A stretch of 64,000 nt of DNA from Longimicrobiales bacterium (GCA_965204735.1 OZ242008.1:1856001-1920000); one strand, 5' to 3'; shown: positions 7,697-23,675, counted from the stretch's first letter. Program-made: numbers and translations. Notes: generated from the letters alone by a model not told the origin.

Positions 7697-9193
7697 ATGC
7701 TTATCGACTACTCCTCGGGCTTCCACTACTTGCTGGCGATGGCACCGGAGGCTGTGCTCGCGACCACGGGCATGGCGGTGCTCCTGGCGGGCGTCTCCGG
7801 GAAGCGGCAGAACGGGCCGGGCCAGGAGCTGGGCTGGATTGCGCTGGCCGGCTTGGCGGCGGCTGCCGTCGCCAACGGCTGGCTGTACTCGGGAGCGACG
7901 GAAGACGGGACCGACGCGATGATCGCCGTGGACCGGCTCCGCCTTTTCGCCAACTGGGTCTTCCTCCTGGGCGCCGCCTTCGCCGTGGTGGTCTCCCTGG
8001 ACTACGTGGCTCGGCGCCGGCTCCAGGCCGGCGAGTACTACTCGCTGATCCTCTTCGCCGTGGTCGGGATGATGTTCATGGCGTCGGCCCGGGACCTGAT
8101 GATCGTCTTCCTGGGCCTGGAGCTGATGTCCATGGCCGTGTACGCCCTGGCGGCGTTCAACCGTCGCGACCTGCGCTCGGCGGAAGCGGGTCTGAAGTAC
8201 TTCCTCCTGGGCGCCTTCGCCAGCGGCTTCCTCCTCTTCGGGATCGCGCTGGTCTACGGAGCGGCGGGGAGCGCCAACATCCAGGAGATCGCGATCGCGG
8301 TGCGCGAGGGCACGGCTTCTCGGGGCCTGCTGCTGCCGGGCGTGGCGCTGCTGGCGGCCGGCTTCGCCTTCAAGGTGTCGGCGGTGCCGTTCCACATGTG
8401 GACCCCGGACGTCTACCAAGGGGCGCCCACGCCGGTCACTGCCTTCATGGCCGCTTCGGTGAAGTCCGCAGCCTTCGTCGCGTTCCTGCGGATATTCATC
8501 GCAGGGCTGGGCGGCGCGTCGGCGGAGTGGGCGCCGATCCTCTGGTGGCTGTCGGCGGCGACGATGGTGGTCGGCAACCTGATCGCCGTCGTCCAGTCGG
8601 ACGTCAAGCGAATGCTGGCCTACTCCTCCATCGCCCACGGCGGCTACCTCCTCGTGGCATTGGTGGCCGGCAACGACGCGGCGACAGGGGGGCTCCTCTT
8701 CTACCTCCTCGTCTACACGGTGATGAACGTGGGCGCCTTCGCCGTCCTGATCGCGGCGGGCCGCCGCTCCGATCGCGGCTCGAAGATCGAGGAGTTCGCC
8801 GGCTTCGGCTGGCGCAACCCGCTCCTGGGCGTCCTCATGACCCTCTTCCTGCTCTCCCTTGCCGGCTTCCCGGGGACGGGCGGCTTCATGGCCAAGCTCT
8901 TCCTCCTCCAGGGCGCGGCGGAAGCGCAGCTGTGGGTTCTCTCGGTGATCCTCGTCCTCACGACGGTGGTGTCCTACTGGTACTACCTGCGGGTGGCTTG
9001 GTACATGTGGATGAAGGACGCCCCGGAGGCGACGGGGACGGTTCCCGAGCGCCTCGCCGTGCCCATGGCCGCCCATGTGGTCCTGCTGGTGGGCGCCGGA
9101 GTGGTGCTGTTGACGGGCGTCTTCCCCGGCGCCCCCCTGGAGCTGGCGATGGAGGCGGTGCACGGCTTGGCAGAGAGCGTTGCCGGGCACTGA
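7697..9193 (+). CDS. nuoN: NADH-quinone oxidoreductase subunit N
   Basis: SAEAGLKYFLLG, FKVSAVPFHMWTPDVYQGAPTP and KRMLAYSSIAHGGY motifs; alternative GTG start at 7688. Confidence 0.96.
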   Translation: MLIDYSSGFHYLLAMAPEAVLATTGMAVLLAGVSGKRQNGPGQELGWIALAGLAAAAVANGWLYSGATEDGTDAMIAVDRLRLFANWVFLLGAAFAVVVSLDYVARRRLQAGEYYSLILFAVVGMMFMASARDLMIVFLGLELMSMAVYALAAFNRRDLRSAEAGLKYFLLGAFASGFLLFGIALVYGAAGSANIQEIAIAVREGTASRGLLLPGVALLAAGFAFKVSAVPFHMWTPDVYQGAPTPVTAFMAASVKSAAFVAFLRIFIAGLGGASAEWAPILWWLSAATMVVGNLIAVVQSDVKRMLAYSSIAHGGYLLVALVAGNDAATGGLLFYLLVYTVMNVGAFAVLIAAGRRSDRGSKIEEFAGFGWRNPLLGVLMTLFLLSLAGFPGTGGFMAKLFLLQGAAEAQLWVLSVILVLTTVVSYWYYLRVAWYMWMKDAPEATGTVPERLAVPMAAHVVLLVGAGVVLLTGVFPGAPLELAMEAVHGLAESVAGH

Positions 9194-10655
9194 GCCGAGC
9201 CGGATCGACCCAGCCGCAGTCCCCGGCGGAATCTTTCGCCAGTACGACATTCGCGGGATCGTGGGCGAGAGCTTGGACCCGGCGATCGCAGAGGCGGTGG
9301 GCGCGGCCTACGGCGCCGAGCTCCGGGACCGCTTGGGAGGCGCCGTCCCCAAGGTGGTGGCGGGTCAGGACAACCGACCTTCGTCGCCCTCCCTGGCGGA
9401 CGGGCTGACGCGGGGCGTCCACGCCGCCGGCTGCGACGTGGTGCGGCTGGGAACGGTGCCCACCCCGGTCGCCTACTTCGCCGAGCACGAACTGGCGGCC
9501 CACGGGTCGCTGCAGGTCACCGGGTCCCACAACCCGTCCGAGTACAACGGCGTCAAGATGACGGTGGCGAAGGCGTCGCTTCACGGCGACGCGATCCAGG
9601 CGCTCTTGGCGCGGATCCGCTCGGGACGCATGAGGCCGGCGCAGGGACCGGCGGCGGACGTGGCCGGCCCGACCTCGCCCGGCGAGTCGGCGGCGGCGGA
9701 CGGGCGCTCGGCCTCCGGCGCCGTGGAAGAGGTGGACGTGCTGCCCGCCTATGTCGCCGCGGTCGCGGGACGCTTCCGTCCCGCCAGGCCGGTCAAGGTC
9801 GTGGTGGATTGCGGGAACGGGACCGGCGCGGTGGTGGCTGTCGAGCTCCTGGAGGCGGCGGGCGCCCAGGTGGTTCCCCTCTACTGCGACTCCGACGGCA
9901 CGTTCCCGAACCACCACCCGGACCCCACGGTGGACGACAACGTCCGCGAGCTGGCGGCCCAGGTTCGCCGCCACGGCGCCGAGGCGGGGATCGGCTTCGA
10001 CGGAGACGCGGACCGGATCGGCGTGGTGGACGGAGAGGGCCGGATCGTCCGGGCCGACGTCCTGCTGCTGCTCTTCGGCCTGGACATGCTCCGCCGGGTC
10101 GGCCCCGGCGTCCAGCTGGTGTTCGACGTGAAGTGCTCCCAGGCGCTGCCGGAGGTGTTCGAGCGGGCGGGCGGCGTGCCCGTGATGTGGAAGACGGGCC
10201 ACTCGCTCGTCAAGGAGAAGATGAGGGAGACCGGGGCTCCGATCGCCGGCGAGCTCTCGGGCCACATCTGCTTCGCCGACGACTACTACGGCTTCGACGA
10301 CGCGCTCTACGCCGCCTGCCGCTTGGTGGAGATGATCGCCGGGTCCGAGCGTTCGTTGGCCGAGATGGTGCGGGAGCTGCCGTCGTACGCCTCCACTCCC
10401 GAGATGCGGATCGACGTGCCGGAGTCCGAGAAGTTCGGCTTGGTGGCCGACGCCAGGGAGTACTTCGCCCGCGACCACGAGGTGATCGCGCTGGACGGCG
10501 CCCGGGTGCTGTTCGGGGACGGCTGGGGGCTGATCCGGGCCTCCAACACCCAACCGGCGATCACGGTGCGCTGCGAAGCCGCCACCGAGGCGCGCCTGGG
10601 GGAGATCCGCGAGACGCTGGAACGCTGGCTTCGGGCCCGAGGCGTCCGCCTGTGA
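9180..10655 (+). CDS. Phosphomannomutase/phosphoglucomutase (AlgC/ManB-like)
   Basis: IFRQYDIRG, active-site TGSHNP, metal-binding FDGDADR and sugar-binding GELSGH motifs. Confidence 0.95.
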   Translation: MPGTEPSRIDPAAVPGGIFRQYDIRGIVGESLDPAIAEAVGAAYGAELRDRLGGAVPKVVAGQDNRPSSPSLADGLTRGVHAAGCDVVRLGTVPTPVAYFAEHELAAHGSLQVTGSHNPSEYNGVKMTVAKASLHGDAIQALLARIRSGRMRPAQGPAADVAGPTSPGESAAADGRSASGAVEEVDVLPAYVAAVAGRFRPARPVKVVVDCGNGTGAVVAVELLEAAGAQVVPLYCDSDGTFPNHHPDPTVDDNVRELAAQVRRHGAEAGIGFDGDADRIGVVDGEGRIVRADVLLLLFGLDMLRRVGPGVQLVFDVKCSQALPEVFERAGGVPVMWKTGHSLVKEKMRETGAPIAGELSGHICFADDYYGFDDALYAACRLVEMIAGSERSLAEMVRELPSYASTPEMRIDVPESEKFGLVADAREYFARDHEVIALDGARVLFGDGWGLIRASNTQPAITVRCEAATEARLGEIRETLERWLRARGVRL

Positions 10656-11908
10656 GGCGCCCGGACTCCAAGCGTGGAGCCGGGGACCGCCTCGGCACGA
10701 CCGTAACCTTGGCCATACTGGTAAGTACTGTCGGCGCTGCTGTCGGGCCTCCTGGCGAGGAGCCGCCAAGTCACGCGATCCTCCACTTCGATCACGGACG
10801 ACACGCCGATCAAGCAGCTGGGTGAAGTGTTGTTTCACTCGGACAGCGTCGATTCATCGACATCGACGAAACTCGGCAAGTTGGGAGGAGGCTTGTTTCT
10901 CAACTCGAATCTGTTCGTATACGCCGACGCCCTTGCGAGGACGCTCAACTTTGTACACGTGGATCGGCGAGAGATCGTCACGGTCGGCGGCCATGGCCAG
11001 GGGCCCGGAGAGTTTCAGGTGGTTGGTGGGGTTTTTCGAGACGGCCGGGGCAATGTGATAGTTGACGACTGGGCAGCACTGCGTGCAACAGTACTTGATC
11101 CGGACGGAAATGCGATCCGAACCATAGCTTACGACGTGTCGCCGCTCACCGGCGGTCCGGGCGTGCCCAGGGTCGTCGGGCTGACGACGACCGGCACACT
11201 GATTGTACGCGATTCCGATCCATGGGTCGTTCCGCGGCCAGATGGCTTGTATCGACCGAATGTTTGGCTCGTCACTCTCGACGTCGCCTCCCGGTCATCC
11301 CTAACAATTGCGCACGGCCAGGGTCGAGAGAGCGTGCGAATGAACCACAGTGCAGATGACGCGCACAGCTTTTCCTTCAGTACCGTGGACGTCCCGTTTG
11401 CTCATGATCTGTTCAGCGTTTTCATGACGATAAGCTGTACGTAGCCGATACGAGCAAAGACAGTGCAGTCGTCGTGAATACGGCGGGAACCGTAGTTCGA
11501 CGAATTCCCCTTCCTCCCGCAAGAATCGCATCTGAAGAGGACCTTGCATCTTGGAAAGAACAGCAGACCACAAGACTGCGGGAGCGCAACAGATCTCCGA
11601 GTTCTTTTGATGCCAGCGACCACATCAGATGGACGAGGGAAGCCACTGGCAACACCGTTGCCCCGCGAATCAGCGGCATGTTCGTGGACGTCGCAGGACG
11701 GCTGTGGATGCAGCGATACGCGATGCCAACCGATACGGCGGCTTACTGGGAGCTGTGGGACCTGAATGATCAAGTTCTATCCGCTGTGGTGAGCGTGTCC
11801 CCAGGAGACCAGCTGTTGGATGCGGCGGGCGACGTTGTCTTGACCAGCAGCACGACCGAGTTGGGGTTGACCAGCATCACAGTATGGCGGCTTGCTGGCG
11901 AGTCGTGA
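10652..11908 (+). pseudogene. Exported 6-bladed beta-propeller-like protein, split into three frames (10652-10825, ~10725-11444, ~11420-11908)
   Basis: GTG overlaps the PMM stop and is followed by a hydrophobic signal-like segment. The middle piece has GGHGQGPGEF. Restoring one T in the TTTT at 11419-11422 gives ...PFAHDLFSVFHDDKLYVADTSKDSAVVVNTAG, collinear with the downstream paralog. The C-terminal VDVAGRLWMQRY...WELWD...LLDAAGDVVL matches the paralog. Confidence 0.7.
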
Positions 11909-13167
11909 ACCACCACCGGCTCGTTCGCGTACTTGCTCTGGTCGGCGCCGTAGTCGGAGTGTCGGGGCGGGCAGGGGACCAGAGGATTGTTGAACGGCGC
12001 CTGTCCTCGCCGCCGCTCTTTGACTCGCACCTCGTCACGGATCCTGGAATGTCGGCGATTGATGCGACATCTGCGCTCTTTACAGGGAAGAATCGATTTG
12101 CAGCAGCCGGTCCGGAGCATGCGGACGCCACGCTTGTCTTTGTCGACGTGGTCGATGGATCAGTGGCGACGGTTACTGCAGAGGCGCTGGGACTTTCGGG
12201 GATCGGGGGCATGACGCTGGTGCGGGCAGGCGCCGATGGCCGAGTGGTCGCTTGGCACGGCGAGTCCTCTCAGGTCGTCACCATCTCGACAACGGGGACG
12301 GCAGTTGAGCGCATACCCCTTGGGTTGCCCGCCGGCTTTATGACGGCGCCGTGGGAACTTGCTGCACTTGGCGTCGAAGATGGGGTGGCCGTGTTGAGGC
12401 AACGGGCCATTGGGGCCGGCTTCGGCAACGTGGGCGGCATGTCGTATCGTCAACGGCTAGAGTTTTCGCTGATTCGGCCCGGTGGAGACCCGGAACCCGT
12501 CGTGCAGGTTGGGGGAGCAGAACGTGTCTATCTTGCTGTTCGCGAGGACTCCGCTCGGGGCAATGTCGAGACGGATGTGATTTTCGGTGAAACGGTTTTC
12601 AGCGCTCCACTCGGCGCCGACAAGGTGATTGTTGCGGAAACCGACGCAGATTCGATCTGGGTGCTGGACACGCAGGGCAACTACAGGCCGCTGTTGCCGA
12701 CGCCACTGCGATCGGTTGTCGTGACTGAGGATGACGTTCGAATTGAGCGGAGTCGGCTGAGGCGGCGCAATCTGATGGACCAGGAGATGGACGGTTTGAT
12801 GGACATGGTATCCGGTCGGCATCGAGAGCAACTCATGGCTCTTGATCGTGCCAGTCGCATGGCGATCGACTTGGCGCCGGTGAGTTGGACGCCGCCGGCG
12901 ATCGCAGATCTGGTGGTGGACGGGCAGTCGAGAGTGTGGCTGAAGCGGTTCGTGCCGCCGACGGATTCGGTTGCCACTTGGGAAGTATGGAACACGGAGA
13001 GACGGGTTGTTGAGTTTCGCCTGGACGCACCGCAAGAGTGGGACGTCTTGGATGCTCGCGGTGACCAGGTGCTGCTTCGCGCGGAGGGGAGTTGGGAGGC
13101 CGGGGCAGATCGTCTTGGCCGGCTGCTGGTTATGGAAATGCAGCCGGCGTCGCGGCACGACGACTGA
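11905..13167 (+). CDS. Exported beta-propeller-like protein (paralog of the upstream split gene)
   Basis: GTGA overlap with the previous stop; N-terminal signal-like RLVRVLALVGAVVGVSG; C-terminal PPAIADLVVDGQSRVWLKRF...WEVWN...VLDARGDQVLL resembles 6-bladed propeller proteins. Confidence 0.75.
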   Translation: MNHHRLVRVLALVGAVVGVSGRAGDQRIVERRLSSPPLFDSHLVTDPGMSAIDATSALFTGKNRFAAAGPEHADATLVFVDVVDGSVATVTAEALGLSGIGGMTLVRAGADGRVVAWHGESSQVVTISTTGTAVERIPLGLPAGFMTAPWELAALGVEDGVAVLRQRAIGAGFGNVGGMSYRQRLEFSLIRPGGDPEPVVQVGGAERVYLAVREDSARGNVETDVIFGETVFSAPLGADKVIVAETDADSIWVLDTQGNYRPLLPTPLRSVVVTEDDVRIERSRLRRRNLMDQEMDGLMDMVSGRHREQLMALDRASRMAIDLAPVSWTPPAIADLVVDGQSRVWLKRFVPPTDSVATWEVWNTERRVVEFRLDAPQEWDVLDARGDQVLLRAEGSWEAGADRLGRLLVMEMQPASRHDD

Positions 13168-13359
13168 CGCACTTGTCCGGGAGCGCCTTGGATTGGTGGG
13201 CTGCCCGACGGTGCACGATGGCGGACGCCCGGGCTGCGAGGTGGACGCTCGCTGGCCGGGTCGACGCCGACCGGTACGGTGATACCGTGGTACCACGACG
13301 CGGGAGGCGCGGCGGCGAGCCGCCGGACCGACGGCCAACCTTCGGCAAGCGTCGGGCCG

Positions 13360-13369
13360 AAAAAAAAAA
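13360..13369 (+). repeat. A10 homopolymer in the intergenic region upstream of the peptide operon
   Basis: gccgAAAAAAAAAAtag, directly visible and highly atypical of this GC-rich DNA. Confidence 0.85.
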
Positions 13370-13519
13370 TAGTCCCATCCAGCTATCCAAACGCCCATTT
13401 CCGGTCGCCATCATTAAGCCGTCGGTGGAAAGAACCGCCGTGATCGGGGGTTCCGCCAGCCCGCAGGGCGGGCAGCACGGCTGTCTCCCGACACCCGGAC
13501 CCAAGCGATGGAGGCGAAG

Positions 13520-14227
13520 ATGGCGAAGACGCGAACCGAACGGAGCCGTTGGCGCGCCCGCGTGGCGCGCGGTTCGACGGCAACTGGTTCCTCACACGGA
13601 GATTCGTCGCCGGCCGAAGCGCTGCGCGGTCGCTCGCCGGGGACGTTGGCGGCGATCGGCGGCCAGGGGACGGTTGCGGTTCTGGCGGGCGTGGCCTTTG
13701 CCGCCTGTGCCGGAGGCGGGCCGAACAGATCGGCGCCCCTGGACGTGGGCGACCCGGCGCCGCCGTCGCTGCAGCTGTCCGGGAGCGGACCGGCTCTGGT
13801 CTGGGCGTTCAACTCGGTGGATTGCCTGACCTGCAAGCTGGCGGAGTCGTCGTGGGTTGTCCGGCGGCTTCAACGCCGCTTCCGCGGCCTGAAGACGGTG
13901 GTGGCGGCGGTCGGACCGGGCAGTGCGTCCGATCGGGAGATGGTCGCAGGGTTCCTCGCCTCGGAGCGAATCCAAGCCACGATCCTGATGCAGACGCGGA
14001 AGGCGCACGCCGGGGAGTTCGGCGGAGGCGCGCCGCTTCCTGCGCTGTACCTGGTGGGGCGGTCGGGAACCACCGTGACGGCTGCCGTGCCCGACCCCGC
14101 TGCCCCCGGCGTTCCCGATTGGGACCGCTTCGACCTGGACGCAGTCCTGCACCGCCTCGCCCAGTCGGTCGACGCGGACGAAGAGCCGAACAGCACACAC
14201 ACAACTCGCAAGGAGAACAACCAATGA
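13520..14227 (+). CDS. Thioredoxin-fold (TlpA/redoxin-like) lipoprotein with CxxC
   Basis: GGAGG RBS before ATG 13520; lipobox-like VAVLAGVAFAAC; redoxin N-motif LDVGDPAP; beta-strand plus CxxC (LVWAFNSVDCLTC); cis-Pro-loop-like PLPALYLVGRSG. Confidence 0.7.
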   Translation: MAKTRTERSRWRARVARGSTATGSSHGDSSPAEALRGRSPGTLAAIGGQGTVAVLAGVAFAACAGGGPNRSAPLDVGDPAPPSLQLSGSGPALVWAFNSVDCLTCKLAESSWVVRRLQRRFRGLKTVVAAVGPGSASDREMVAGFLASERIQATILMQTRKAHAGEFGGGAPLPALYLVGRSGTTVTAAVPDPAAPGVPDWDRFDLDAVLHRLAQSVDADEEPNSTHTTRKENNQ

Positions 14228-14499
14228 CGAACCGAACGGAGAAGCGTGCAAAGAGAAGCCGGGCGAAGACCCTGGTGGCCGCGACGGGCTTGGCCCTGGC
14301 CGTGATTTCCGCAAGCCCGGCCGCCGGGTTCGGACCCGCGCTCGACGGGCGGGCGGAGGCTCAGTACCACGTCAAGATGAAGCTGGTGTACGGACCCTTC
14401 CAGCTCTGCGTGTGGTCGTGCTACCTGGGCCGCTGCTGCGCCTACGACAAGCCCACCTTCCCATACTGGGAGTCGGAGTTCGACGCCATGACTCGTTAG
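14224..14499 (+). CDS. Small secreted Cys-rich precursor peptide 1 (91 aa; core C-x3-C-x4-CC)
   Basis: AAGGAG RBS; ATGA overlap with the thioredoxin gene; MTNRTEKRAKRSRAKTLVAATGLALAVISASPAAG...AEA|QYHVKMKLVYGPFQLCVWSCYLGRCCAYDKPTFPYWESEFDAMTR. Confidence 0.8.
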   Translation: MTNRTEKRAKRSRAKTLVAATGLALAVISASPAAGFGPALDGRAEAQYHVKMKLVYGPFQLCVWSCYLGRCCAYDKPTFPYWESEFDAMTR

Positions 14500-14532
14500 G
14501 CTGGAGTCCCTCGCCCCATCCCTCGGGCCGGA

Positions 14533-14565
14533 GCCGCCGGACGCATATAGATAGGCGCCGGCGGT
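14533..14565 (+). terminator. GC-rich stem-loop after peptide 1 (possible partial terminator or mRNA stabiliser)
   Basis: gccgccgg-a-cgc ... gcg-ccggcggt inverted repeat followed by ctgtt. Confidence 0.45.
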
Positions 14566-14605
14566 CTGTTGCCCGTCCCCGACAGAAGCGAAGAAGGAGT
14601 CGCCG

Positions 14606-15766
14606 GTGAAGACCAACGCACCCGCAGGAAGCCGCCAGAAGACGAACGCAACCGACGTTGCCCCTCGGGCGCGTCAGCCATCAATTCCGTCTGGTCGGGT
14701 CTTCCCAGTCCTGGTCGTCGCGCTGACGCTGTCGGCCTGCGACCGGGCCGATCCTCCGTCCCCTCCGGCGACGCCCTCCGCTTCGACCTCCGAGACGCCG
14801 TCGCTCGCCGCGCTGGAGGGGGTCTTCGAGGTCGTCGGCTCTATCGAGCTGGAAGAGACCGACGAAGTGCTGACGGTCCAGCCCATGGTGACCGTCGGCG
14901 GTCCCGGCGAGCTGCTGGTCGCGGAGCCCATGGAGGGACAGGTCCGCGTGTACGGCGTGGACGGGGCGCTCCGGGCGAACCTGGGACGCAGAGGAGCAGG
15001 TCCAGGCGAGTTCGAGTTCCCGATGACGGCGCATCGGACGCTCGACGGCGGGCTGGTGGTCGCCGACGTGGGCATGTCGCGCCTGACCTTCTTGGCATCG
15101 GGCAACCCTGATTCGGTCCAGGTTGCCGATCTGCCCGACGTCGGGCTGCTCGCTGCCCAGGACATGGGCGACGGGCGCTACTTGATCGCCGGTCTCAACC
15201 GCCCGGACGGCCCGGAGGGAAGCTTCCTCCACTTCTGGAACCGAGGAACCCAGGAGTTCGAGCGGAGCTTCCTGCGCATGAGAGTTCCGGAGGAGCTCGA
15301 GGCGCTGGCCATGACGATGTCCGGCGTGGTGGCGGTAACGGAGGCCGATACCATATGGGCGGCCTGGGCCCTTTCGGACACGCTCTACAAGTACGACCTC
15401 GAGGGCAATCGCCTTGCCGCCTACCCGCTTGTCCTGCCCCGTCCGGGAAGCGGACCGCAAGGCGGCGAAGTCATCCGCGATCCCGTGTCCATGCGGGAAG
15501 AGTTCGACGCCACTACGCAGATCATGAACGTGTTCCCGCTGCGCAGCGGGAGGATCGCGGTCCAGGCCATGCAGACCCGTGGCAACGATGCGGTCTTCGA
15601 TCTCTTGATCGTCGACCGGGAAGGGAACGACCTGTGGAAGCAGGCGGGCACTCCCAGGTTGTACGTCGTCGCCGACGACGTGTTCTACTTCCAGGATCCG
15701 TCCTCGGTGCACCCCAACAAGTGGGTCGTGGCCACATTGGCCGAGCTGCCCACCAACGAGGGATAG
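14606..15766 (+). CDS. 6-bladed beta-propeller (NHL/TolB-like) lipoprotein
   Basis: GAAGGAG RBS; lipobox VLVVALTLSAC; LGRRGAGPGEFEFP blade motif; repeated DGGLVVAD/LYKYDLEGN/LLIVDREGN blade-like segments. Confidence 0.8.
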   Translation: MKTNAPAGSRQKTNATDVAPRARQPSIPSGRVFPVLVVALTLSACDRADPPSPPATPSASTSETPSLAALEGVFEVVGSIELEETDEVLTVQPMVTVGGPGELLVAEPMEGQVRVYGVDGALRANLGRRGAGPGEFEFPMTAHRTLDGGLVVADVGMSRLTFLASGNPDSVQVADLPDVGLLAAQDMGDGRYLIAGLNRPDGPEGSFLHFWNRGTQEFERSFLRMRVPEELEALAMTMSGVVAVTEADTIWAAWALSDTLYKYDLEGNRLAAYPLVLPRPGSGPQGGEVIRDPVSMREEFDATTQIMNVFPLRSGRIAVQAMQTRGNDAVFDLLIVDREGNDLWKQAGTPRLYVVADDVFYFQDPSSVHPNKWVVATLAELPTNEG

Positions 15767-15782
15767 CCGTCGAGGGCGTGAC

Positions 15783-15814
15783 GGCGCGGCCGTCCACTTC
15801 GGGGCGGCCGCGCC
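15783..15814 (+). other. Stable hairpin upstream of peptide 2 (10-bp GC stem; loop region contains cUUCGg)
   Basis: ggcgcggccg (15783-15792) pairs with cggccgcgcc (15805-15814); cttcgg at 15797-15802. Confidence 0.6.
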
Positions 15815-15848
15815 CGAACGCAGTCAACACACCCCAAGGAGCAAGACC

Positions 15849-16094
15849 ATGAGAGCACCCAAGAGAGAAACCAACAAGAGGAGCCGCGCGAGGACGGCCG
15901 TCAAGGCAGCGGGCTTCGCACTCTTCGCGCTGGCCGGAGCGCCGGCTGCCGGCGACTTTCCGCAGGCGACGCCTGCGGTCGAAGCCGCTGCCCAGCACCG
16001 GGCTGCCAAGAAAGTCGAAGGGTGGTGGATATTCGAGAGGTGCACGGGTGACTGTCCGGGTCACGGCCGGTGCTGCGGCACCTCCGTCGTGTAG
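15849..16094 (+). CDS. Small secreted Cys-rich precursor peptide 2 (81 aa; core C-x3-C-x5-CC)
   Basis: CAAGGAG RBS; MRAPKRETNKRSRARTAVKAAGFALFALAGAPAAG...VEAAA|QHRAAKKVEGWWIFERCTGDCPGHGRCCGTSVV. Confidence 0.85.
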   Translation: MRAPKRETNKRSRARTAVKAAGFALFALAGAPAAGDFPQATPAVEAAAQHRAAKKVEGWWIFERCTGDCPGHGRCCGTSVV

Positions 16095-16149
16095 CCGGGC
16101 GGCCCAAGGCGCAGACCCCAATCAATCAAGACAAGGAGAAGAGAAAGTC

Positions 16150-16395
16150 ATGAAGACAAGACAGAAGACCACTGGCCGGCGTGCTTCGATCGCAAGACTG
16201 GCAAAGGGAGGCGCGTTGGCGGCGGGGCTGCTCGCCGTCGGCCCCTTCACGGCCGAGTTCGCTGACGCTCCGAGCGTCGAGGCAACGGCCCAGCGCGTGT
16301 ACGGCGACAAAGCGGTCCTGGCGTTGTGGTCCATCGAGTGGTGCATGTTCGACTGCCCGGGAGTCGGCGCCTACTGCTGCGGCCCGGTCGCGTAG
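16150..16395 (+). CDS. Small secreted Cys-rich precursor peptide 3 (81 aa; core C-x3-C-x6-CC)
   Basis: CAAGGAG-containing leader; MKTRQKTTGRRASIARLAKGGALAAGLLAVGP...VEATA|QRVYGDKAVLALWSIEWCMFDCPGVGAYCCGPVA. Confidence 0.85.
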   Translation: MKTRQKTTGRRASIARLAKGGALAAGLLAVGPFTAEFADAPSVEATAQRVYGDKAVLALWSIEWCMFDCPGVGAYCCGPVA

Positions 16396-16429
16396 CTCCG
16401 TCCCTAGCATAGCAGGAATCCCGAAGGAA

Positions 16430-16522
16430 GCCGGCGAGTTGGCGAGGCGGCTCGCCGGCCCCTAGGGGCACCACGCGGACGCACCGGCGGATCCCCCCGC
16501 ATCGACAGTAGGGGGATCCGCC
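16430..16522. terminator. Two stem-loops between the convergent peptide 3 and bshB1 genes
   Basis: gccggcgag/ctcgccggc (16430-16459) and ggcggatccccc/gggggatccgcc (16486-16522) inverted repeats; no clear U-tract. Confidence 0.55.
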
Positions 16523-16541
16523 ACCGCTGCTTGCCGGTTCC

Positions 16542-17267
16542 TCAGAAGGTTGCCGTGGCGAGCCGGCCCAAGGTCGAAGCCTCGGTGGTTTCCTCGGTCC
16601 AGTAGGGCTCGCCGTATTCGCAGCGGATGAGGGAGCCGTACCAGGCGTGCGCGCTTCGCACTTGGTCGAAGAACGGCCTGCGCCCGCCCGGAAACACCTC
16701 GCCGGCGCCCTTCGCGCGCCTGAACTGCGTGCCATATGCCGCGAGAACCGCGAGCTTTCGCTCCATCTGGCGGCCGATGTCGATCACGAAGGTGGGCTTC
16801 ACCGCATCCTCTCGGAACGCCAGGGCGTGCACCACCTTCTCGGGACGGTGGGCGGATCCGCCGCCGGGGAAGTTGCGCAGGCCCGCCAGGAAGGAGGCGT
16901 CTCGGGCCAAGCGCGCCGCCGCCTCGTGATCGGGATGGCGCCCCTTCGGCCAGTGGGTGACGACGACCCTGGGTCGAAGAGCACGGATTGCCCGGGCCAC
17001 GACGACGCGGGATTCCCGGTCGTCGACCAGCCCCGCGTCCGGCAGTCCGGCGCAGCGACGGTCCGCCAGTCCCAGGAGTTCGGCCGCCGCTGCCGCCTCC
17101 TGCGCCCGGGACTCCCGGCTTCCGCGACTCCCGGCCTCGCCGGCCGTCAGGTCGAGCACGCCCGTGCGCTCCCCGGCGTCCGCCGACTTCAGGAGAGCGC
17201 CGCCGCACAAGAGCTCGGCATCGTCCGGATGGGCCGTCACGGCCAGGACGTCGAGCGGCTCGATCAC
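16542..17267 (-). CDS. bshB1: Bacillithiol biosynthesis deacetylase (PIG-L family)
   Basis: LDVLAVTAHPDDAELLCGG, VLDLTAGEAGSRG, RHPDH and YGEPY motifs; GTG start 17267. Confidence 0.85.
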   Translation of the reverse strand: MIEPLDVLAVTAHPDDAELLCGGALLKSADAGERTGVLDLTAGEAGSRGSRESRAQEAAAAAELLGLADRRCAGLPDAGLVDDRESRVVVARAIRALRPRVVVTHWPKGRHPDHEAAARLARDASFLAGLRNFPGGGSAHRPEKVVHALAFREDAVKPTFVIDIGRQMERKLAVLAAYGTQFRRAKGAGEVFPGGRRPFFDQVRSAHAWYGSLIRCEYGEPYWTEETTEASTLGRLATATF

Positions 17268-17283
17268 GGCGGGACGCTCCGGG

Positions 17284-18567
17284 TCACTCGTAGCGCAGCG
17301 CGTCCACGGGGTCGAGCTTGGAGGCGCGCAGCGCCGGAAGGAGACCGAAGACGATCCCCGTGGCAGCGGCGAGGCCGATTGCGGCCCCGACGGACCAAAG
17401 GGGAATGCGCGCGGGAAGGGGGGTGAGGGCGGCGGCGGCGGACGACGCGCCCCATCCAACGAGCAGCCCGGCAGCGCCGCCCAGTGCGGTGAGGAACGAC
17501 GCTTCCAGGAGAAACTGCCACATGATCTCCCGGCGGGTCGCTCCCAACGCCTTTCGAACGCCGATCTCGCGAGTCCGCTCCGTGACGGAGATGAGCATGA
17601 TGCCGATCACCCCTATCCCGCCCACCAGCATCCCGATCGACGAAAGCCCGAGCATGACCGCGAAGAACATCGTCGTGAGCTGGTTGAAGAGATCCACCAT
17701 CTGCTCGGCCTTGACTGTCGCGAAGTTGTTTTCCTCGCCCGGTCCGAGGCCGCGCATCGAGCGCAGCGTGGAGACGATCTGGTGCTCGGCCTCGATCGCC
17801 GCGCCTTCCCGCGGCACCACCTGCACGCTCATGAACGTCCACCGGTCGCGTGCCTTCAGCCGCTTGTCGGCGGCGGTGTAGGGCACCACCGCGAAGTTCT
17901 CCTGAATCTCGCCGAAGTAGTTGTCGGCCAGGGAGTACACGCCGACCACCGTGAAGAGTTCGTTCGCCGCTCGCCGGCCGGCGTTCACTCGCACCCGCTT
18001 GCCGATCGGGTCGAGGTGTCCGAAGAGCACTTCCGCCAACTTCTCGGAGAGGACGACCACGGCTCGGGCCTGATTGATCTCGGCGACCGTGAAGTCCCGC
18101 CCGCTCACGAAGCCGCCCGGGGTGTACGAGGGCCATCCCGGCGACGCGCCGCGCCAGCTGACGTCGTACAGCCAATCCGACTCGAAGCGGACCGAGGCTC
18201 GGAACTCGTAGCCGGCGATTGCTTCTTCCACCGCAGGAAGGCTCTGAATGCGCCGCACCTCGCGGTTGCTGATGTCGGGCTTGTCGAACCAAGGGGGACG
18301 CCCGGATCCGTCGAAGGCCGCCCGCACGTCCGACATGTCGAAGGGCATCACCATGAAGTTGTCCGGTCCCGCGGAGTCGAACGCCGACATGACCTGGGTG
18401 CGGATCCCCGTCACGACCGCGGCGATCGTCACCACGACCCCCGTGCCGACCCCTACGCCCAGCACCGCCAAGGCGGCCCGCAGCCAGTTGGCCCGCAAGG
18501 CTTCGACCGCCACCCGCGCACCCTCCAGAAAGACCTTCCCCTTGGAACTCACCCTCTGTTCGGTCAC
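17284..18567 (-). CDS. ABC transporter permease, MacB/FtsX family
   Basis: [29 protein letters not shown] and [10 protein letters not shown] motifs; GAGGAG RBS before GTG 18567. Confidence 0.93.
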
Positions 18568-18589
18568 GATCGGCTCCTCTTTTCGCTCG

Positions 18590-19831
18590 CTACTCGTACC
18601 GAAGCGCATCGACGGGATCCAGCCTCGCCGCGCGCGCCGCCGGATAGACCCCGGACACCACGCCCACCACCAGCCCCAAGACCACTCCGAGGGCGGCCCA
18701 CTTGGGAGCCACGACGGCGGGAAGCGGCGACACCGCCCCCACCAGCACCGTGGCCGCGGACCCCGTCGCCACGCCGAAGACCGCCCCGATGCCCGACAGC
18801 GTCGCCGTCTCGATCAGCACCTGGACCAAGATGTCGCGGCGCTTGGCGCCGATCGCTTTTCGGATGCCGATCTCCCGAGTCCGCTCCATGACCGTCACCA
18901 GCATGATGTTCATGATCACGATCCCGCCCACCACCAACGAAGTGCCCACTAGGCCGGGCAGGGCGGTGAAGAGGACCGTGCTGATCCGGTTCCAGAACCC
19001 CAGGGTCCCTTCAGTCGTCTCCGCGGCGAAGTCGTTCAGGTCGCCCGGGCGGAGCCGTCGCCGGATCCGCATGATCTCCTCCGCCTCCTGCTGCAGGGGC
19101 AAGACAAGCTCCGGAGTGTTGGCCTTGATCACGATCTGGTCGACGATTCCCCGGGGGTTGGTGAAGCTCTGGACCGGCGACCGAGCGGGCGCCACGGCGA
19201 TGTTGTCGAGGGACTGTCCCAGAAACGAGCCCTGCTCTTCGAGGACGCCGACGACGCGAAAGGGGAACCCGCGAATGCGGACTTCCTTGCCCACCGGGTC
19301 CACTGCTCCGAAGAGGACGTCGGCCGTGGAGCGGCCGAGCACGACGACTGGCCTGCCTTGTTCGTCCTCGGCCTGGCTGAACACCCGTCCCTCCTCGGCG
19401 ACCCAGTTGCGGATGTTGAACATCTCGGCCGTGGCGCCCACGATCCTCACGTTCTCCACCTTGAGGCCGCTCGCCGACTCGAGCTGGCCCCCGCTGGCGG
19501 ACTGGGCGCCGACCACGGCCGGCAGCGCGACCCGCTCCCGGAGATGATCCAGATCGTCGTAGGTCAGCCTGGGCGCCCGAGCCCACGCCCGGCGCTGCTC
19601 GTCCGAGGTGTTCAGGTCGTTTCGCGGCCACCGGAGGACCGTCACCGTGTTGACGCCGATGAAGCTCTCGACGAGAGTCGTCCGCATGTAGCGGTCCACG
19701 CCCTCCACGATGCTCACGACGAGGACGAGGAACATCACGCCCACGATCACGCCCAGCAGGCTGAAGAAGCTCTTGAGCTTCTGGGTGCGGATCTGCTCCG
19801 TGGCCAGCCGGACTCCTTCGAGCGTCTTCAT
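18590..19831 (-). CDS. ABC transporter permease, MacB/FtsX family
   Basis: [29 protein letters not shown] and [10 protein letters not shown] motifs. Confidence 0.93.
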
Positions 19832-19839
19832 GGCCCGGG

Positions 19840-21150
19840 TCAGTTGCCGCCGTCGGCGCCGTCGCCCTCGTCCTCGTCCGGGTCGGAGGCCCGGATTCGG
19901 TCGCCGTCCTCGAGCGTCCGCACGATCTGATAGGGGCCGCTCACCACCGTGTCTCCCTCGGCCAAGCCGGACAGCACCTCGAAGTACTCCTGACCCGCGA
20001 TGCCGATCTCCACGGCCATGAACGTCGCGCTGCCGTCGCGCACGACGTACGCTCCCTCGACTTCCACGGGCGCGTCCGCCGCCTTGTCGTCGCCGGTCGG
20101 GAAGGCGGCGCCGGAGGTTCCGGACGCGCCCGCGGTCGCCGCCGAGTCCGGGGACAGCTCCCTGACCGTCAGAGCGATGATGGGGATGCTCAGCGCGTCG
20201 TCGCGAGTGGCCGTCACCAAGTCCGCGGTCGCCGACAGGTCGGGGCGAAGCTCGACCCCCGGGTTCCGGAGCGTGACCACCACCTCGAAGTCGATCGTCG
20301 GCGTCTGCCCAGTGCCGGCCGACGCGGAGGGCGACCTGATGGCGCTGTTGCCGATCTCGGTGACCACGCCGGCAAAGTCGCGGTCGGGGAAGGCGTCCAG
20401 CTCCACCGTGGCGCTGTCCCCGAGCTGAATGCCGGGCACGTCGGTCTCGTCGACCTCCAGCACCACCTCCATCACGGACAGGTCCGAGACGGTGAGCACC
20501 AAGCTGCCCGGGTTGTTCATCGTTCCCACGATGACCGTCTCGCCTTCCTCCACGTTCAGGCGCGTGACCCGGCCGGCCATCGGCGCCCGGATGATCGTCT
20601 TGGAGACGTTGTCGCGGGATTCCTCCACCGCCGCCTGGGACTGGCTCACCCCGTACTCGGCCGACTCCAGAAGCGACCGCTGAACTTCTTCCTGGGTCTG
20701 GGCGTTCTCCACGTCCTGCAAGCTGACGAGCAGCGAGTCCCGCGCCCGAAGGTCTGCCAGCCGCTGCGCGTCCCGCTGCGCCTGAAGGTAGTTGGCCCGA
20801 GCCTGCGCCACTTGGGCCTGGGCCTGAAGCAGCGCGGCTTGGCTTCGGCTCAGGCTCGCCTGGAAGCGCGTGGGGTCGAGGCGGAGAAGCACCTGCCCTT
20901 CGGTCACCTCCTCGCCTTCCTCCACCAGCATCTCCGTGACCCGCGCCGAAATGTCGGAGCTGATGTCCACCTTGCGCCGCGCCCGCACGTTGCCGCTGGC
21001 CGTCACCGTCTCGACCAGGTTTCTCCTCTCGATTCCTTCGATCCGGGCGCTGGTCCCCGTCGCTCGGGAGCCGTTGGAGCCGAGGACCGCCGCAGTTGCA
21101 AAGAGGGCGACGACGCCGGTTCCGACGATGACCTTGGTTCTGGTTCGCAT
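19840..21150 (-). CDS. Efflux periplasmic adaptor (MacA/HlyD family)
   Basis: Lipoyl half-motifs VEEGEEVTEGQVLLRLD and IRAPMAGRV, coiled coil, EVLSGLAEGDTVV. Confidence 0.93.
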   Translation of the reverse strand: MRTRTKVIVGTGVVALFATAAVLGSNGSRATGTSARIEGIERRNLVETVTASGNVRARRKVDISSDISARVTEMLVEEGEEVTEGQVLLRLDPTRFQASLSRSQAALLQAQAQVAQARANYLQAQRDAQRLADLRARDSLLVSLQDVENAQTQEEVQRSLLESAEYGVSQSQAAVEESRDNVSKTIIRAPMAGRVTRLNVEEGETVIVGTMNNPGSLVLTVSDLSVMEVVLEVDETDVPGIQLGDSATVELDAFPDRDFAGVVTEIGNSAIRSPSASAGTGQTPTIDFEVVVTLRNPGVELRPDLSATADLVTATRDDALSIPIIALTVRELSPDSAATAGASGTSGAAFPTGDDKAADAPVEVEGAYVVRDGSATFMAVEIGIAGQEYFEVLSGLAEGDTVVSGPYQIVRTLEDGDRIRASDPDEDEGDGADGGN

Positions 21151-21157
21151 GGTGTCC

Positions 21158-22729
21158 TCAGGGGTTCCTTATAGGGGCGCCGACCACGGCCTCCAAGTCG
21201 GCGACTGCGTCGTGATAGGTGAAGACGGCGAGAACCCGGGCCCGGTCGGCTCTGGCCTTGACCGTTTCCGCCTCCGCCAACTCGATGAAGCTGGAGATCC
21301 CCAGCCGGTACCGCTCCCTGGCCAAGCGAAGCTGTTCGTCCGCGAGCGCTTGGTTCCGTTCCTCGATCACGGCCGTCTCGTAGGCCGTCCGCACGATCGC
21401 CAGGCGCGACTCCACGTCGGCCCGCAGGGCGAGCTCCTGCTCGCGCAGCTGATGGCGGCTGTCCGAGAGCCGGGCCTTCGCCGCCTCCACGTTCTGCTGC
21501 CGGGAGAGGCCCTGGAAGACAGGCACCGACACCGTAAGCCCCGCCGACGGGGGCGAGTTCGTGAAGCTGAAGGGAAAGGCGTTGTTCTGGTCCCGGATCG
21601 CCTGGATCGCCGCGTCCGGGGTGGCAAGCCGGGAGCAGTTCTGGGGAGGCAGAGGGTCGGCCAGCCGGGCCGTCAGGTCGTTCAGCGTCTGGCACTGGCG
21701 GATCGCCGCCTGCCCCTGGGCGATCGCCTGGGCCTCCTGGCTGGCGGTGTTGCTCGCTTGGCGGGTGAAGCCGCTGAACCCGGTCGTGAGGGAGATCGAC
21801 GGGTAGTAGGAAGACCTGGCCATGCGCACGCCGTATCGGGCCGATTCCTCCGTCGCCCGCAGGGACCGCAGCCCGGGGTTGTCGCCGAGGGCGGACTCGT
21901 AGAGGTCGCGCGCGCTCCAGCTCGGCTCGGCAACCACGAAGGTCGTCGCCAACGACGGCTCCGCCGCCAACTCCACGCCCATCTGCTGAAGGAGCCTGAT
22001 CCGGGCGGTCCGAACCCCGGTCCGGGACTGGAGCACCGAGACCTGGGCCCTTCCCACGGCGACTTCGGCCTGCTGCACGTCGATGGCGTTGCCCGACCCC
22101 ACTTCCAGTCTTCCCTGGGCCAGCCGCAGGTCGATCTGCGCCCTCTCCATCTCCCGCTCGGAGAGGTTGAGCTCCTCGATCTGCCGCAGCACCTCCAGAT
22201 ACGCCTTGGTCACCCCCAGGCGAAGGCTCGCCTCCGCGACGCTCACCTGGGCGCGGGTGGCGTCTCGGTCGCGCTTGGCCTGTCCCGGGGCCAGGAGGGT
22301 TCGCCCGTCCATGGAGTAGCTGAAGCCCACGTTGTACGAGCTGAAGTAGAAGGAGGGCTGGTCCTGGAACCCCAGCTGCTCGGCGGTGATGCTGCCGAAG
22401 CGCTGCTCTCCCGCGCCCTGCCAGGAGAGGCTGGAGCTCGCCGACGCCGACGGCAGCCAGGAGGCGTAGGCGGATCGGACGTTCCAGTCGGCGACGGGCA
22501 CGTCGTTGCGGGCGACCTGCACCGCAGGGTTGTTGCGAAGGGCGACCTGCAGGGCGTCTTCAAGGGTCAGCGACGCGGGGACCTGCTCGCGGCCCGGGAC
22601 GGGCTGGCCTGCCGCGGGACGGAGAAGTCCGGCCGACAGCCCGGCGAGCACGAAGGCCGTCGCGAGCAAGGCGCCCGCCCCTCCACTTCGGATTGCGTTT
22701 CGGCTGTATGCCGCAGGACGGTATGACAT
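21158..22729 (-). CDS. TolC family outer membrane efflux protein
   Basis: AAGGAG RBS before ATG 22729; signal peptide; LTLEDALQVALRNNP and ERYRLGISSFIEL motifs. Confidence 0.92.
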   Translation of the reverse strand: MSYRPAAYSRNAIRSGGAGALLATAFVLAGLSAGLLRPAAGQPVPGREQVPASLTLEDALQVALRNNPAVQVARNDVPVADWNVRSAYASWLPSASASSSLSWQGAGEQRFGSITAEQLGFQDQPSFYFSSYNVGFSYSMDGRTLLAPGQAKRDRDATRAQVSVAEASLRLGVTKAYLEVLRQIEELNLSEREMERAQIDLRLAQGRLEVGSGNAIDVQQAEVAVGRAQVSVLQSRTGVRTARIRLLQQMGVELAAEPSLATTFVVAEPSWSARDLYESALGDNPGLRSLRATEESARYGVRMARSSYYPSISLTTGFSGFTRQASNTASQEAQAIAQGQAAIRQCQTLNDLTARLADPLPPQNCSRLATPDAAIQAIRDQNNAFPFSFTNSPPSAGLTVSVPVFQGLSRQQNVEAAKARLSDSRHQLREQELALRADVESRLAIVRTAYETAVIEERNQALADEQLRLARERYRLGISSFIELAEAETVKARADRARVLAVFTYHDAVADLEAVVGAPIRNP

Positions 22730-22890
22730 TGCCAGGACCAGCTCCTTGGGGTTCTCGCGTAAGGACGGCACGGGGTTCCCGCCCACAGACGGCGTGCCCG
22801 GCCGGCGCCGTGAAGTCGAGCGCAGGCGCCGGGCCACTGTACGAAGGCGTCCGCAGCCCGGTTTCGGTACGAACGGGGCCGCCGGGACGC

Positions 22891-23661
22891 TCATTCCCTG
22901 GAAACGTCGCCGCTTCGCCACGGCGTCGCCGCTTCGCCGATGCCCAGGACGCGCTCCGCCGCGAAGCCCCCCGCCGGGGCCTCCACCCGCACCAGCCGAC
23001 CGCTGCCGTCGAACCACGCCAGCCGCTCCTCGTCTCCGAAGCTGAGGCGAACCCGGGTGGTCGCGATCGGGCCGCCGTCCACCTGGATCGTCTCGGGCGT
23101 CGCGTCCGCCTCCGCCGAGGCTTCCTTCTGCGAGACGGGCGACAGCACGTGAAGGGAGGAAAGCCGGCCCTGGAGAAGTGCCCCCAGCACGAAGTAGTGG
23201 TGGGCGACCCCCTCGTCCAGAATCACCGTGGAGAGCGGGGCGCGGTACTCCCGGACCTCCTCGCCCCACGGCCCCTGGGTCAGGGCGTCGAGACGGCTTC
23301 CCGCTCGCTCCAGCGTGACGGCCAGCGTGTCGGGACCCTCGAAGCGGAGCGCCCGGTAGCTGCGGACGACGAGCGTCCGACCCTGCGCCACCAGAGTCGT
23401 GACCAGCGTGGGGCCGTCGCGCATCGCCACGGCGCCCGTGGCCGTTGCGCGCTGGTCGTCGCCCTCTCCCCGCCACTGGATCTCGAACTCCTCCGTGCCC
23501 GCCTCCCGGCCGTTCAGGTACAGCTGAAAGGCGCCCCTGTCCACGCGCTGCCCCGAGGCTTCCTCGGCAGGGAGGAAGGCGGGCGCGATCGCCGCGACGA
23601 CGCACGCCGCCCGCACTGCGGCGGCGCGGCCAAGGCGGGATGGGCGGAGTGACCGGTACAT
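22891..23661 (-). CDS. Hypothetical exported protein (beta-rich)
   Basis: MYRSLRP... followed by signal-like ACVVAAIAPAFLP; host-like codon usage; first gene of the efflux operon. Confidence 0.7.
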   Translation of the reverse strand: MYRSLRPSRLGRAAAVRAACVVAAIAPAFLPAEEASGQRVDRGAFQLYLNGREAGTEEFEIQWRGEGDDQRATATGAVAMRDGPTLVTTLVAQGRTLVVRSYRALRFEGPDTLAVTLERAGSRLDALTQGPWGEEVREYRAPLSTVILDEGVAHHYFVLGALLQGRLSSLHVLSPVSQKEASAEADATPETIQVDGGPIATTRVRLSFGDEERLAWFDGSGRLVRVEAPAGGFAAERVLGIGEAATPWRSGDVSRE

Positions 23662-23675
23662 TACGTTGAATGATA
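23657..23675. promoter_or_regulatory. Candidate overlapping bidirectional -10 elements for divergent, probably leaderless genes
   Basis: + strand TACATT (23657-23662) lies 7 nt before ATG 23670; - strand TATCAT (23675-23670) lies 8 nt before ATG 23661. Confidence 0.45.

Follow-up and report, generated by a model that had tools for sequence, protein, structure and literature searches.

We analysed a window of 64,000 nucleotides (nt) from a Longimicrobiales bacterium (GCA_965204735.1 OZ242008.1:1856001-1920000; positions are counted from its first letter), in which an initial annotation had proposed a new system of exported disulfide-rich peptides lying between two core genes. The five co-oriented genes that it described are indeed all on the + strand; a PGM/PMM gene flanks them upstream and a convergent PIG-L/bshB1-like gene downstream, and both flanks were confirmed by a Pfam scan. 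They encode a thioredoxin-like lipoprotein, a propeller lipoprotein and three small four-cysteine precursors (lengths are in amino acids, aa):

13520..14227, + strand: thioredoxin-like lipoprotein, 235 aa, TlpA/DsbE-like, active site C-L-T-C, no Pfam or NCBIfam match
14224..14499, + strand: peptide 1, 91 aa, four-Cys exported precursor, C-x3-C-x4-CC, family profile E 5.2e-19
14606..15766, + strand: propeller lipoprotein, 386 aa, six-bladed NHL-type, lipobox LSAC, distant DUF5128 relative
15849..16094, + strand: peptide 2, 81 aa, four-Cys exported precursor, exact sequence present in public gene calls
16150..16395, + strand: peptide 3, 81 aa, four-Cys exported precursor, family profile E 2.7e-23, exact sequence present in public gene calls

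The stop codon of the thioredoxin-like gene overlaps the ATG of peptide 1 in an ATGA at 14224, which is the translational coupling described in the initial annotation; in relatives it is often the propeller and thioredoxin genes that are coupled, with the same kind of overlap in L040 and L041. A GGAG-type ribosome-binding site precedes each peptide gene and the propeller gene. The thioredoxin-like open reading frame (ORF) is also open from an ATG at 13508; a GGAGG lies 5 nt before 13520, and a public 235-aa protein, 98% identical to the one encoded here, fits the start at 13520. Export signals had been claimed for every product, and each has the features of one: the thioredoxin-like protein carries a lipobox-like AFAAC together with its DCLTC motif, the propeller protein carries the lipobox LSAC, and each of the three peptides has a basic N-terminus, a hydrophobic stretch and four Cys.

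Propeller, thioredoxin-like protein and peptides form a conserved, narrowly distributed module. Across the 30 loci that we compared (L036-L065, consisting of nine loci of genus g3, one further locus and 20 around stronger thioredoxin matches), a propeller homologue adjoins the thioredoxin gene in all 30. A match to the peptide profile lies beside this pair in 22 of them, and in the other eight (L057, L059, L060, L062-L065) a small exported Cys-rich ORF beside the pair was found by eye. When 401 genomes of the phylum were searched with the thioredoxin profile, 47 matched, with 21 of the 24 genomes of genus g3 and four other families of the class represented. A profile built from 46 peptides matched 21 of the 401 genomes at E<=1e-4, and all 21 are among the 47 that are positive for the thioredoxin. 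Checked by profiles in this way, the co-occurrence that the initial annotation had suggested holds in the loci and in the genomes alike. A set of 40 loci found through the propeller, all from Gemmatimonadota metagenome-assembled genomes (MAGs; Longimicrobiales and Candidatus Palauibacter) and partly overlapping with the earlier genomes, has the thioredoxin in 31 and a peptide in 33; three of these loci have peptide and propeller without a thioredoxin, and four have the propeller alone.

The majority of loci, those of g3 included, have the gene order propeller-thioredoxin-peptides, Palauibacter-type loci have peptides-propeller-thioredoxin, and the window and its closest relative (L068) have thioredoxin-peptide-propeller-peptide(s). 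The nine g3 loci carry propeller, thioredoxin, one to three peptides and then the convergent bshB1; PMM lies directly upstream of the module in eight of them, and the ninth gave no PMM match. In L068, the module occupies the same PMM-bshB1 site as in the window. In genome G080, two out-of-register propeller fragments (L067 7540-8146, the same place as L107) lie between PMM and bshB1 with no thioredoxin or peptide, and are a decayed remnant of the module. Because the window, L068 and g3 share the PMM-bshB1 site and decay is seen in G080, we regard the module as old, variably retained and lost in some lineages. Identity to the g3 relatives is 30-42% for the peptides, 38-45% for the thioredoxin and 43-50% for the propeller, and 61-75% for the neighbouring bshB1, PMM, MacB and HlyD; judging from these identities, the module evolves faster than the genes next to it.

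Peptides 1-3 are paralogues, with peptide 2 being 39% and peptide 3 being 21% identical to peptide 1. Their alignment has 13 invariant columns, four Cys among them, and the Cys follow an invariant framework, C-x3-4-C-x4-7-CC. The genome, a single 4.14-Mb contig, holds only these three copies, all in this locus. The nine loci of same-family relatives contributed 20 further peptides, nearly all of them preceded by a Shine-Dalgarno-like sequence, and in the resulting alignment of 23 peptides the invariant positions are the four Cys and a single Pro that follows the hydrophobic stretch. When 1.84 billion representative proteins were searched with a profile, 46 matched at E<=0.001; of these, 45 are 60-109 aa long and have the same layout; a match of 2180 aa with 15 short stretches (P0065) was set aside unfetched as likely low-complexity. 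The four Cys are invariant in all 46 rows of the enlarged alignment, as they were in 23 of 23 in the earlier one.

Loci and representatives were pooled into a set of 108 unique peptides, 103 of which have exactly four Cys after residue 25. Loop 1 spans 3-5 and loop 2 spans 4-9 residues. An AQ dipeptide lies ahead of the core in 73 of the 108 peptides, and 46 have a small-x-small-Q motif, whose median distance to the first Cys downstream is 16 residues. In 103, the 8 residues preceding the first Cys include 4-6 that are hydrophobic or aromatic. The predicted mature parts have a median net charge of +1. For 22 related, non-independent pairs, the proportion of nonsynonymous differences (pN) was 0.13 versus 0.28 for synonymous differences (pS), and dN/dS was 0.41 in the leader and 0.43 in the core. 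These values indicate purifying selection on the family and a core that is not hypervariable. The initial annotation depended on the small ORFs being conserved, and the Cys framework of the pooled family together with pN and pS bears this out. A conotoxin-like pattern, with a conserved leader and a hypervariable core, was ruled out by the two dN/dS values.

Pfam and NCBIfam contain no meaningful model match for the peptides. For PF14055 (NVEALA), none of the 46 peptides matched even at E<=10, and neither the three window peptides nor the genome as a whole gave a match at E<=1; membership of the peptides in NVEALA was rejected on these searches. A set of 14 control genomes contained no NVEALA match above threshold either. 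A search of the ESM Atlas with peptide 2 returned no usable match, and those public sources that name a member call it a 'hypothetical protein' of a Gemmatimonadales MAG. Genome-wide, 10 small exported ORFs with four or more Cys passed a strict filter, and two of them adjoin a propeller, both in this locus; peptide 1 was excluded by the length rule of the filter.

Other Cys frameworks were seen in the small exported ORF of distant loci, with six Cys in L062-L064 and C-x2-CC-x4-CC-x5-C in L059, and the thioredoxin-propeller pair may serve several peptide families. The variant ORFs are:

L059 7681-7900, - strand: small ORF with variant framework
L062 7605-7853: small ORF with variant framework
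L063 6446-6742, - strand: small ORF with variant framework
L064 7017-7265 and 10353-10703: two small ORFs with variant framework

Another type of small ORF, in which the N-terminus is hydrophobic and the CC-rich tail has three CC pairs, was seen at L053 11029-11286, about 1 kb from a second module copy in genome G205.

The window thioredoxin-like protein matches no Pfam family at E<=10 and no NCBIfam model. One of 10 homologues matches AhpC-TSA (E 0.011), a profile search of the PDB gave StoA at E 0.011 and the rest at E of at least 0.2, and 40 homologues from databases have neither an assigned domain nor an informative name. The lipobox Cys and both Cys of the CxxC motif are invariant across the 10 homologues. 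Among 47 unique homologues, 46 have C-L-[GTSA]-C or, once, C-F-G-C; in the remaining one, Tyr replaces the first Cys. The AlphaFold model has a core (residues 70-200) with a predicted local distance difference test (pLDDT) score of 88-96, in which a strand at 96-102 is followed by a helix from 107, and C106 and C109 are placed at the junction. Foldseek found 369 PDB matches to this model at E<=0.001, the top ones being DsbE, ResA, CcmG, StoA, SdbA and YkuV, with peroxiredoxin-like structures also present. The thioredoxin fold read from the sequence in the initial annotation agrees with these results, and the model predicts more precisely a fold like that of TlpA/DsbE/ResA enzymes. The genome encodes one VKOR and two DsbD/CcdA-type membrane proteins, while a search of it for DsbB found none; the redoxin could therefore be re-oxidised or re-reduced, the supply fixing neither direction.

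The beta-propeller fold, likewise anticipated, was recovered in an AlphaFold model of the propeller lipoprotein (pLDDT 82.8 overall and ~95 in the core) as a six-bladed propeller of NHL type. In VIA-align, the model matched 3s9j, a DUF4221 protein of Bacteroides vulgatus, with Z 22.1, rmsd (root-mean-square deviation) 3.5 and 300 residues aligned, and 4raa, an exported protein of Bacteroides fragilis, with Z 20.8 and 295 aligned. Eukaryotic NHL domains gave Z 21-22, peptidylglycine amidating lyase 19.9, and the NHL domain of SOQ1 (7djl_B) Z 18.9, rmsd 3.7 and 246 aligned. The PF17170 (DUF5128) model scored 17.1 bits (E 0.0034) against the window propeller, below its cut-off of 22.9, but is found at E<=0.01 in 26 of 42 family members (best 1.4e-7) and as a precomputed match in 9 of 41 database homologues. 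By these profile scores we place the window propeller as a distant branch of DUF5128 and not as a clean member.

Propeller-type proteins are strongly expanded in this genome, in which the propeller profile has 54 matches, mostly through the NHL motif. The only other full-length paralogue (G000:C1:3351933-3353111, E 1.9e-89) has no thioredoxin or peptide adjoining it. An attempt to read lipoprotein sorting from the residue after the lipid-modified Cys was dropped as inconsistent (Gly in 17 and Asp in 12 of 42). In L068 (3683-5404), the propeller frame continues for ~100 codons after the similarity ends and overlaps with a peptide ORF that is read in a different frame; at this place the public protein has 468 aa, and the case may be a frameshift, an assembly error or a real extension.

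We predicted the complex of propeller residues 62-386 with peptide 2 residues 33-81, each with its own alignment. The score was 0.87 (0.88, 0.81 and 0.87 in the individual runs), with the best of three controls at 0.05. In calibration, the score mark was reached by 116 of 157 solved complexes and by 2 of 215 mismatched pairs, a guide that is rough here given the use of own alignments. At least 60% of the contacts are common to the runs. On the peptide, the predicted contacts are residues 56-64 and 66 (VEGWWIFER and T), a conserved hydrophobic stretch immediately ahead of Cys65-Cys76. On the propeller, they are residues 92, 108-109, 138, 140, 155-156, 180, 182, 237-240, 255, 296, 300, 305, 307, 322, 324 and 329, mainly Met, Phe and Leu, which are drawn from the whole chain and lie for the most part at the starts of inner strands on the secondary-structure map. 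Read from that map, the contact site would be the mouth of the central tunnel. A hydrophobic and variable site fits a binding pocket better than a catalytic site, and the model supports binding of the aromatic stretch of the peptide by the propeller. The role of receptor, immunity or maturation protein that the initial annotation had offered for the propeller thus gains support from a predicted contact scoring far above its controls.

Around the module, 19 large ORFs between 27 and 32372 were scanned against Pfam. Complex I subunits and then PMM lie upstream, and the two immediate flanks are:

9180-10655: PGM/PMM gene, upstream flank (Pfam scan)
16545-17459, - strand: PIG-L/bshB1-like gene, downstream flank, convergent (Pfam scan)

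The - strand from 16545 to 23941 carries the bshB1-like gene, two MacB-type permeases (FtsX and MacB_PCD domains, without an ATPase domain), an HlyD-type adaptor and a TolC-like outer-membrane protein; past the pump genes lie a histidine kinase and a transhydrogenase. This bshB1/MacB/HlyD/TolC-type run adjoins the module in all loci checked and is likewise found in G080 and G133, two genomes without the module; it could serve as an exit route for periplasmic peptides or be a mere neighbour. The 19 ORFs contain no radical SAM, LanM, YcaO, P450, DUF692 or C39-transporter domain, in line with what the initial annotation had reported. This region offers neither a tailoring enzyme, as expected for a ribosomally synthesized and post-translationally modified peptide (RiPP), nor the double-glycine leader and C39 transporter of a class II bacteriocin, the leaders of the peptides being Sec-type signals.

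Scans of 13100-16600 gave no promoter-like site; terminator-like sites numbered 4, with 2.3 expected, and none of the 4 lies at a gene end. An inverted repeat was seen by eye at 16430-16459, between peptide 3 and the convergent bshB1 (GCCGGCGAG, 12 nt, CTCGCCGGC); it has no T-run and is absent from the output of the terminator scan.

The initial annotation had called the region an accessory insert. This description is only partly right: the module itself is old and syntenic across relatives, with loss in some of them, and the sole stretch of the locus with a recently inserted look is 10.7-13.2 kb, between PMM and the module. There, the GC content is 0.55-0.63 versus ~0.70 around it, and three further NHL/propeller-like ORFs are present, which are missing from L068 and from the nine g3 loci. 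ORFs 10827-11444 and 11474-11908 are seemingly one propeller-like gene split in two, and ORF 11884-13167 (427 aa) is a distant paralogue. Weak relatives of these ORFs adjoin the propeller of L106.

We compared the module with known systems that share some of its parts. Bacteroidales genomes contain unstudied cassettes in which an NVEALA small protein (PF14055) is combined with a propeller lipoprotein of DUF5128/DUF4221 type and with a TlpA-like protein. The module resembles them in having a small exported Cys protein, a six-bladed propeller lipoprotein and a thioredoxin-like protein, and the best full-length structural matches of the propeller, 3s9j and 4raa, are Bacteroides structural-genomics propellers. 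NVEALA loci typically encode a short exported protein next to a DUF5128-type propeller, and the same holds in the window and its relatives; a VEAxAQ-like motif in many module peptides, noticed by eye, is what we take to be a further resemblance to NVEALA. The module differs in that its peptides have no PF14055 match and the window propeller stays under the PF17170 cut-off.

In the sublancin locus, a bacteriocin is accompanied by a dedicated thiol-disulfide oxidoreductase, BdbB. Loci of this type share with the module a small exported Cys peptide beside its own thioredoxin-fold enzyme, whereas the module has no double-glycine leader, C39 peptidase ABC transporter or glycosyltransferase, has signals of Sec type and always has a propeller partner. 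With ResA, CcmG, TlpA, StoA, DsbE and SdbA, the thioredoxin-like protein shares its fold (Foldseek E 5.5e-7 to 3e-5), a membrane tether and a CxxC that starts helix 1. Unlike in that group, the first Cys of its motif is not preceded by the usual W, no Pro occurs inside the motif, and its partners are a propeller and mini-proteins instead of cytochrome c or copper-centre assembly genes.

The pairing of the two folds has its closest parallel in the fused proteins NHLRC2 (human) and SOQ1 (Arabidopsis). In NHLRC2, a TlpA-like thioredoxin (Trx) domain is fused to a six-bladed NHL propeller, and the cleft between them is the proposed ligand site; its Trx domain carries the motif CCINC and lacks classical reductase activity, and the bacterial homologues examined have no conserved neighbours, as given in the portion of the source consulted (PMC6107167). 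In SOQ1, according to the sections consulted, Trx packs on the top face of NHL, and a third, Cys-pair domain lies at the interface (bioRxiv 10.1101/2021.03.16.435614). The module likewise pairs a TlpA/DsbE-like fold with a six-bladed NHL-type propeller outside the cytoplasm (for SOQ1, in the thylakoid lumen), and our thioredoxin model matches the same TlpA-like structures that are named for NHLRC2 in the consulted portion (DipZ, DsbE, DsbF, TlpA-type; PMC6107167). However, the module consists of two separate lipoprotein genes and not one polypeptide, it has C-L-[GTSA]-C where the sections consulted give CC(I/V)NC, and it carries small four-Cys exported proteins where those sections give no conserved neighbours for bacterial NHLRC2 homologues. 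A PDB sequence search returned neither NHLRC2 nor SOQ1 among its matches, with no significant sequence similarity. No Trx-NHL fusion was seen in any locus read, the 'longer' protein length class not having been run; in L052 and L059 there are long overlapping ORFs in different frames. Because the genes are separate, the motif differs and no sequence similarity is detectable, we do not count the module as a member of the NHLRC2/SOQ1 family.

No family with another function claims the proteins, so that the prospect of an already described family with an unrelated function, which the initial annotation had entertained, did not materialise. The literature searched contained nothing describing the module and nothing on NVEALA or DUF5128. 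The component folds are known; the combination and the peptide family are undescribed in the libraries and literature searched. The novelty claimed at the outset stands for the peptide family and for the combination, but less so for the architecture, which has parallels in NHLRC2/SOQ1 and in the Bacteroidales cassettes.

We hypothesized that the locus encodes a three-component cell-envelope module of Longimicrobiales/Gemmatimonadota, in which the propeller binds the peptides and the thioredoxin-like enzyme handles their disulfides, and we consider this reading probable. One to three small proteins would be exported by their N-terminal signals, each bearing a hydrophobic aromatic stretch and then a C-x3-4-C-x4-7-CC loop. 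The NHL-type propeller lipoprotein is predicted to grip the aromatic stretch at the mouth of its central tunnel, and the TlpA/DsbE-like lipoprotein would carry out thiol-disulfide exchange on the four Cys directly after the bound stretch. As an outcome, a two-disulfide mini-protein would be released, or its redox state would be controlled, and its exit might go via the neighbouring pump of the MacB/membrane fusion protein (MFP)/TolC type. The propeller would then be the substrate-recognition subunit of a dedicated redoxin, and the pair a split counterpart of the fused NHLRC2 and SOQ1. The precursors may be cleaved at AxA-Q, with pyroglutamate (pyroGlu) formed, and released from the cell. Elsewhere in the genome, unlinked to the module, G000:C1:2875711-2876403 encodes a glutaminyl cyclase of plant/bacterial type (PF05096, E 4.3e-87), and pyroGlu on an N-terminal Gln is possible given this enzyme.

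For the folded mini-proteins, a function as competition or signalling peptides seems most likely. The interpretation in the initial annotation is supported as a whole; that two disulfides form, and that the peptides act as toxin, signal or metal binder, we infer. It is a bolder and rather doubtful suggestion that the module represents the first machine of a TlpA-like redoxin and an NHL propeller with its natural substrates encoded alongside, as the split NHLRC2/SOQ1 counterpart, and a branch of an undescribed, multi-phylum class of propeller-assisted disulfide mini-proteins.

Several observations weigh against the proposed module. Pro is found at the alignment-assigned cis-proline position in 27 of 47 homologues of the thioredoxin-like protein, the window protein included (LPALY), and because of this count and of the NHLRC2 Trx domain, which has no classical oxidoreductase activity in the source portion consulted, redox activity should not be assumed. 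The closest fold relatives (ResA, CcmG, TlpA) are mostly reductases and not oxidases, and the thioredoxin-like protein might act in either direction. The complex score is the model's own confidence, the pLDDT of the peptide in the complex is only 55-57, and the propeller contact residues are less conserved than average (mean top-residue fraction 0.43 vs 0.58). Among the 40 propeller-found loci, 9 have no thioredoxin and 7 no peptide. The peptides have a long basic N-terminus and a hydrophobic stretch 12-18 residues before AxA-Q, which leaves open that they may stay anchored in the membrane instead of being released.

The same components could also make up a toxin system, with the peptides as bacteriocin-like toxins, the thioredoxin as their dedicated oxidase and the propeller lipoprotein mainly providing immunity to the producer by sequestering peptide at the membrane in the manner of LanI-type lipoproteins. 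Such a system would be consistent with the one to three divergent paralogues that each locus encodes on a fixed Cys framework, with the fast evolution of the module relative to its neighbours, with its presence, absence and decay among relatives, and with the adjoining MacB/MFP/TolC-type pump. The predicted pocket, which is hydrophobic and varies more than other parts of the propeller, would likewise suit a specific binder. Yet a single propeller would have to neutralise up to three differing peptides, whose predicted mature forms have a median net charge of just +1; dN/dS is ~0.4 in leader and core, with no sign of diversifying selection in the core; the module sits at a single syntenic chromosomal site with no mobile element; and it has no dedicated transporter or C39 peptidase, the pump being kept in relatives without the module. 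We consider immunity as the main function of the propeller unlikely. We give still less credence to a periplasmic redox relay or sensor of SOQ1/NHLRC2 type, in which the pair would target other envelope proteins and the four-Cys proteins, instead of being end products, would be its membrane-tethered redox partners or regulators, comparable to the Cys-pair domain of SOQ1. Several divergent peptide copies per locus would be odd for a relay component, no fused form occurs in the 70 loci read (outside the unsearched 'longer' protein length class), and the motif of the module is C-L-[GTS]-C and not the CC(I/V)NC given for NHLRC2 and SOQ1 in the sections consulted. These points stand against the TlpA-like fold of the thioredoxin and the NHL fold of the propeller, the composition of SOQ1 from Trx-like, NHL and a third Cys-pair domain at the Trx-NHL interface (in the sections consulted), fold relatives that are reductases fed by CcdA/DsbD, of which the genome has two, and a long basic N-terminus and hydrophobic stretch in the peptides that could act as a signal anchor. 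The module also adjoins bshB1, a thiol-cofactor gene, but this gene lies on the other strand and is retained by relatives without the module.

Handling of a metal such as copper, with four-Cys mini-proteins that bind it and a TlpA-like protein that maintains their thiols in the reduced state, the role of TlpA towards ScoI and CoxB, appears very improbable to us. The C-x3-C spacing and the CC pair would be compatible with it, respiratory complex I genes lie upstream, and the closest fold family includes TlpA-type reductases (the role of TlpA is taken from the reference list of PMC6107167, the part of that source consulted). Against it, the locus has no copper or metal genes, the peptides have no conserved His or Met, their invariant columns being only one Pro and the four Cys, and known metallochaperones would offer no parallel for an aromatic stretch with predicted docking to a propeller. 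That the small ORFs are not real genes, or that their adjacency is due to chance, is scarcely credible: high-GC DNA does yield many spurious ORFs, but this family is conserved, its Cys framework unchanged, in several families of the class, nearly all of its ORFs have a Shine-Dalgarno-like sequence in front, pN is below pS and the adjacency is seen in 30 of 30 loci, so that the conservation data already contradict such a reading.

If the proposed module is real in this form, small disulfide-bonded exported proteins would be made or controlled without known RiPP or bacteriocin machinery, the substrate being offered by a propeller lipoprotein to a dedicated redoxin. With three small genes and a clear predicted contact, it would provide a simple bacterial system for studying the role of Trx-NHL pairs, among which NHLRC2 is mutated in FINCA disease. 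For NHLRC2 (PMC6107167) and SOQ1 (bioRxiv 10.1101/2021.03.16.435614), ligand or partner sites are only proposed in the sections consulted. Neither the peptide nor the thioredoxin family is covered by a Pfam or NCBIfam model, and the module is therefore likely to be overlooked by the annotation and genome-mining tools now in use. The family would enlarge the pool of candidate antimicrobial or signalling molecules by ~100 four-cysteine mini-proteins, all from a phylum of which few members have been cultured.

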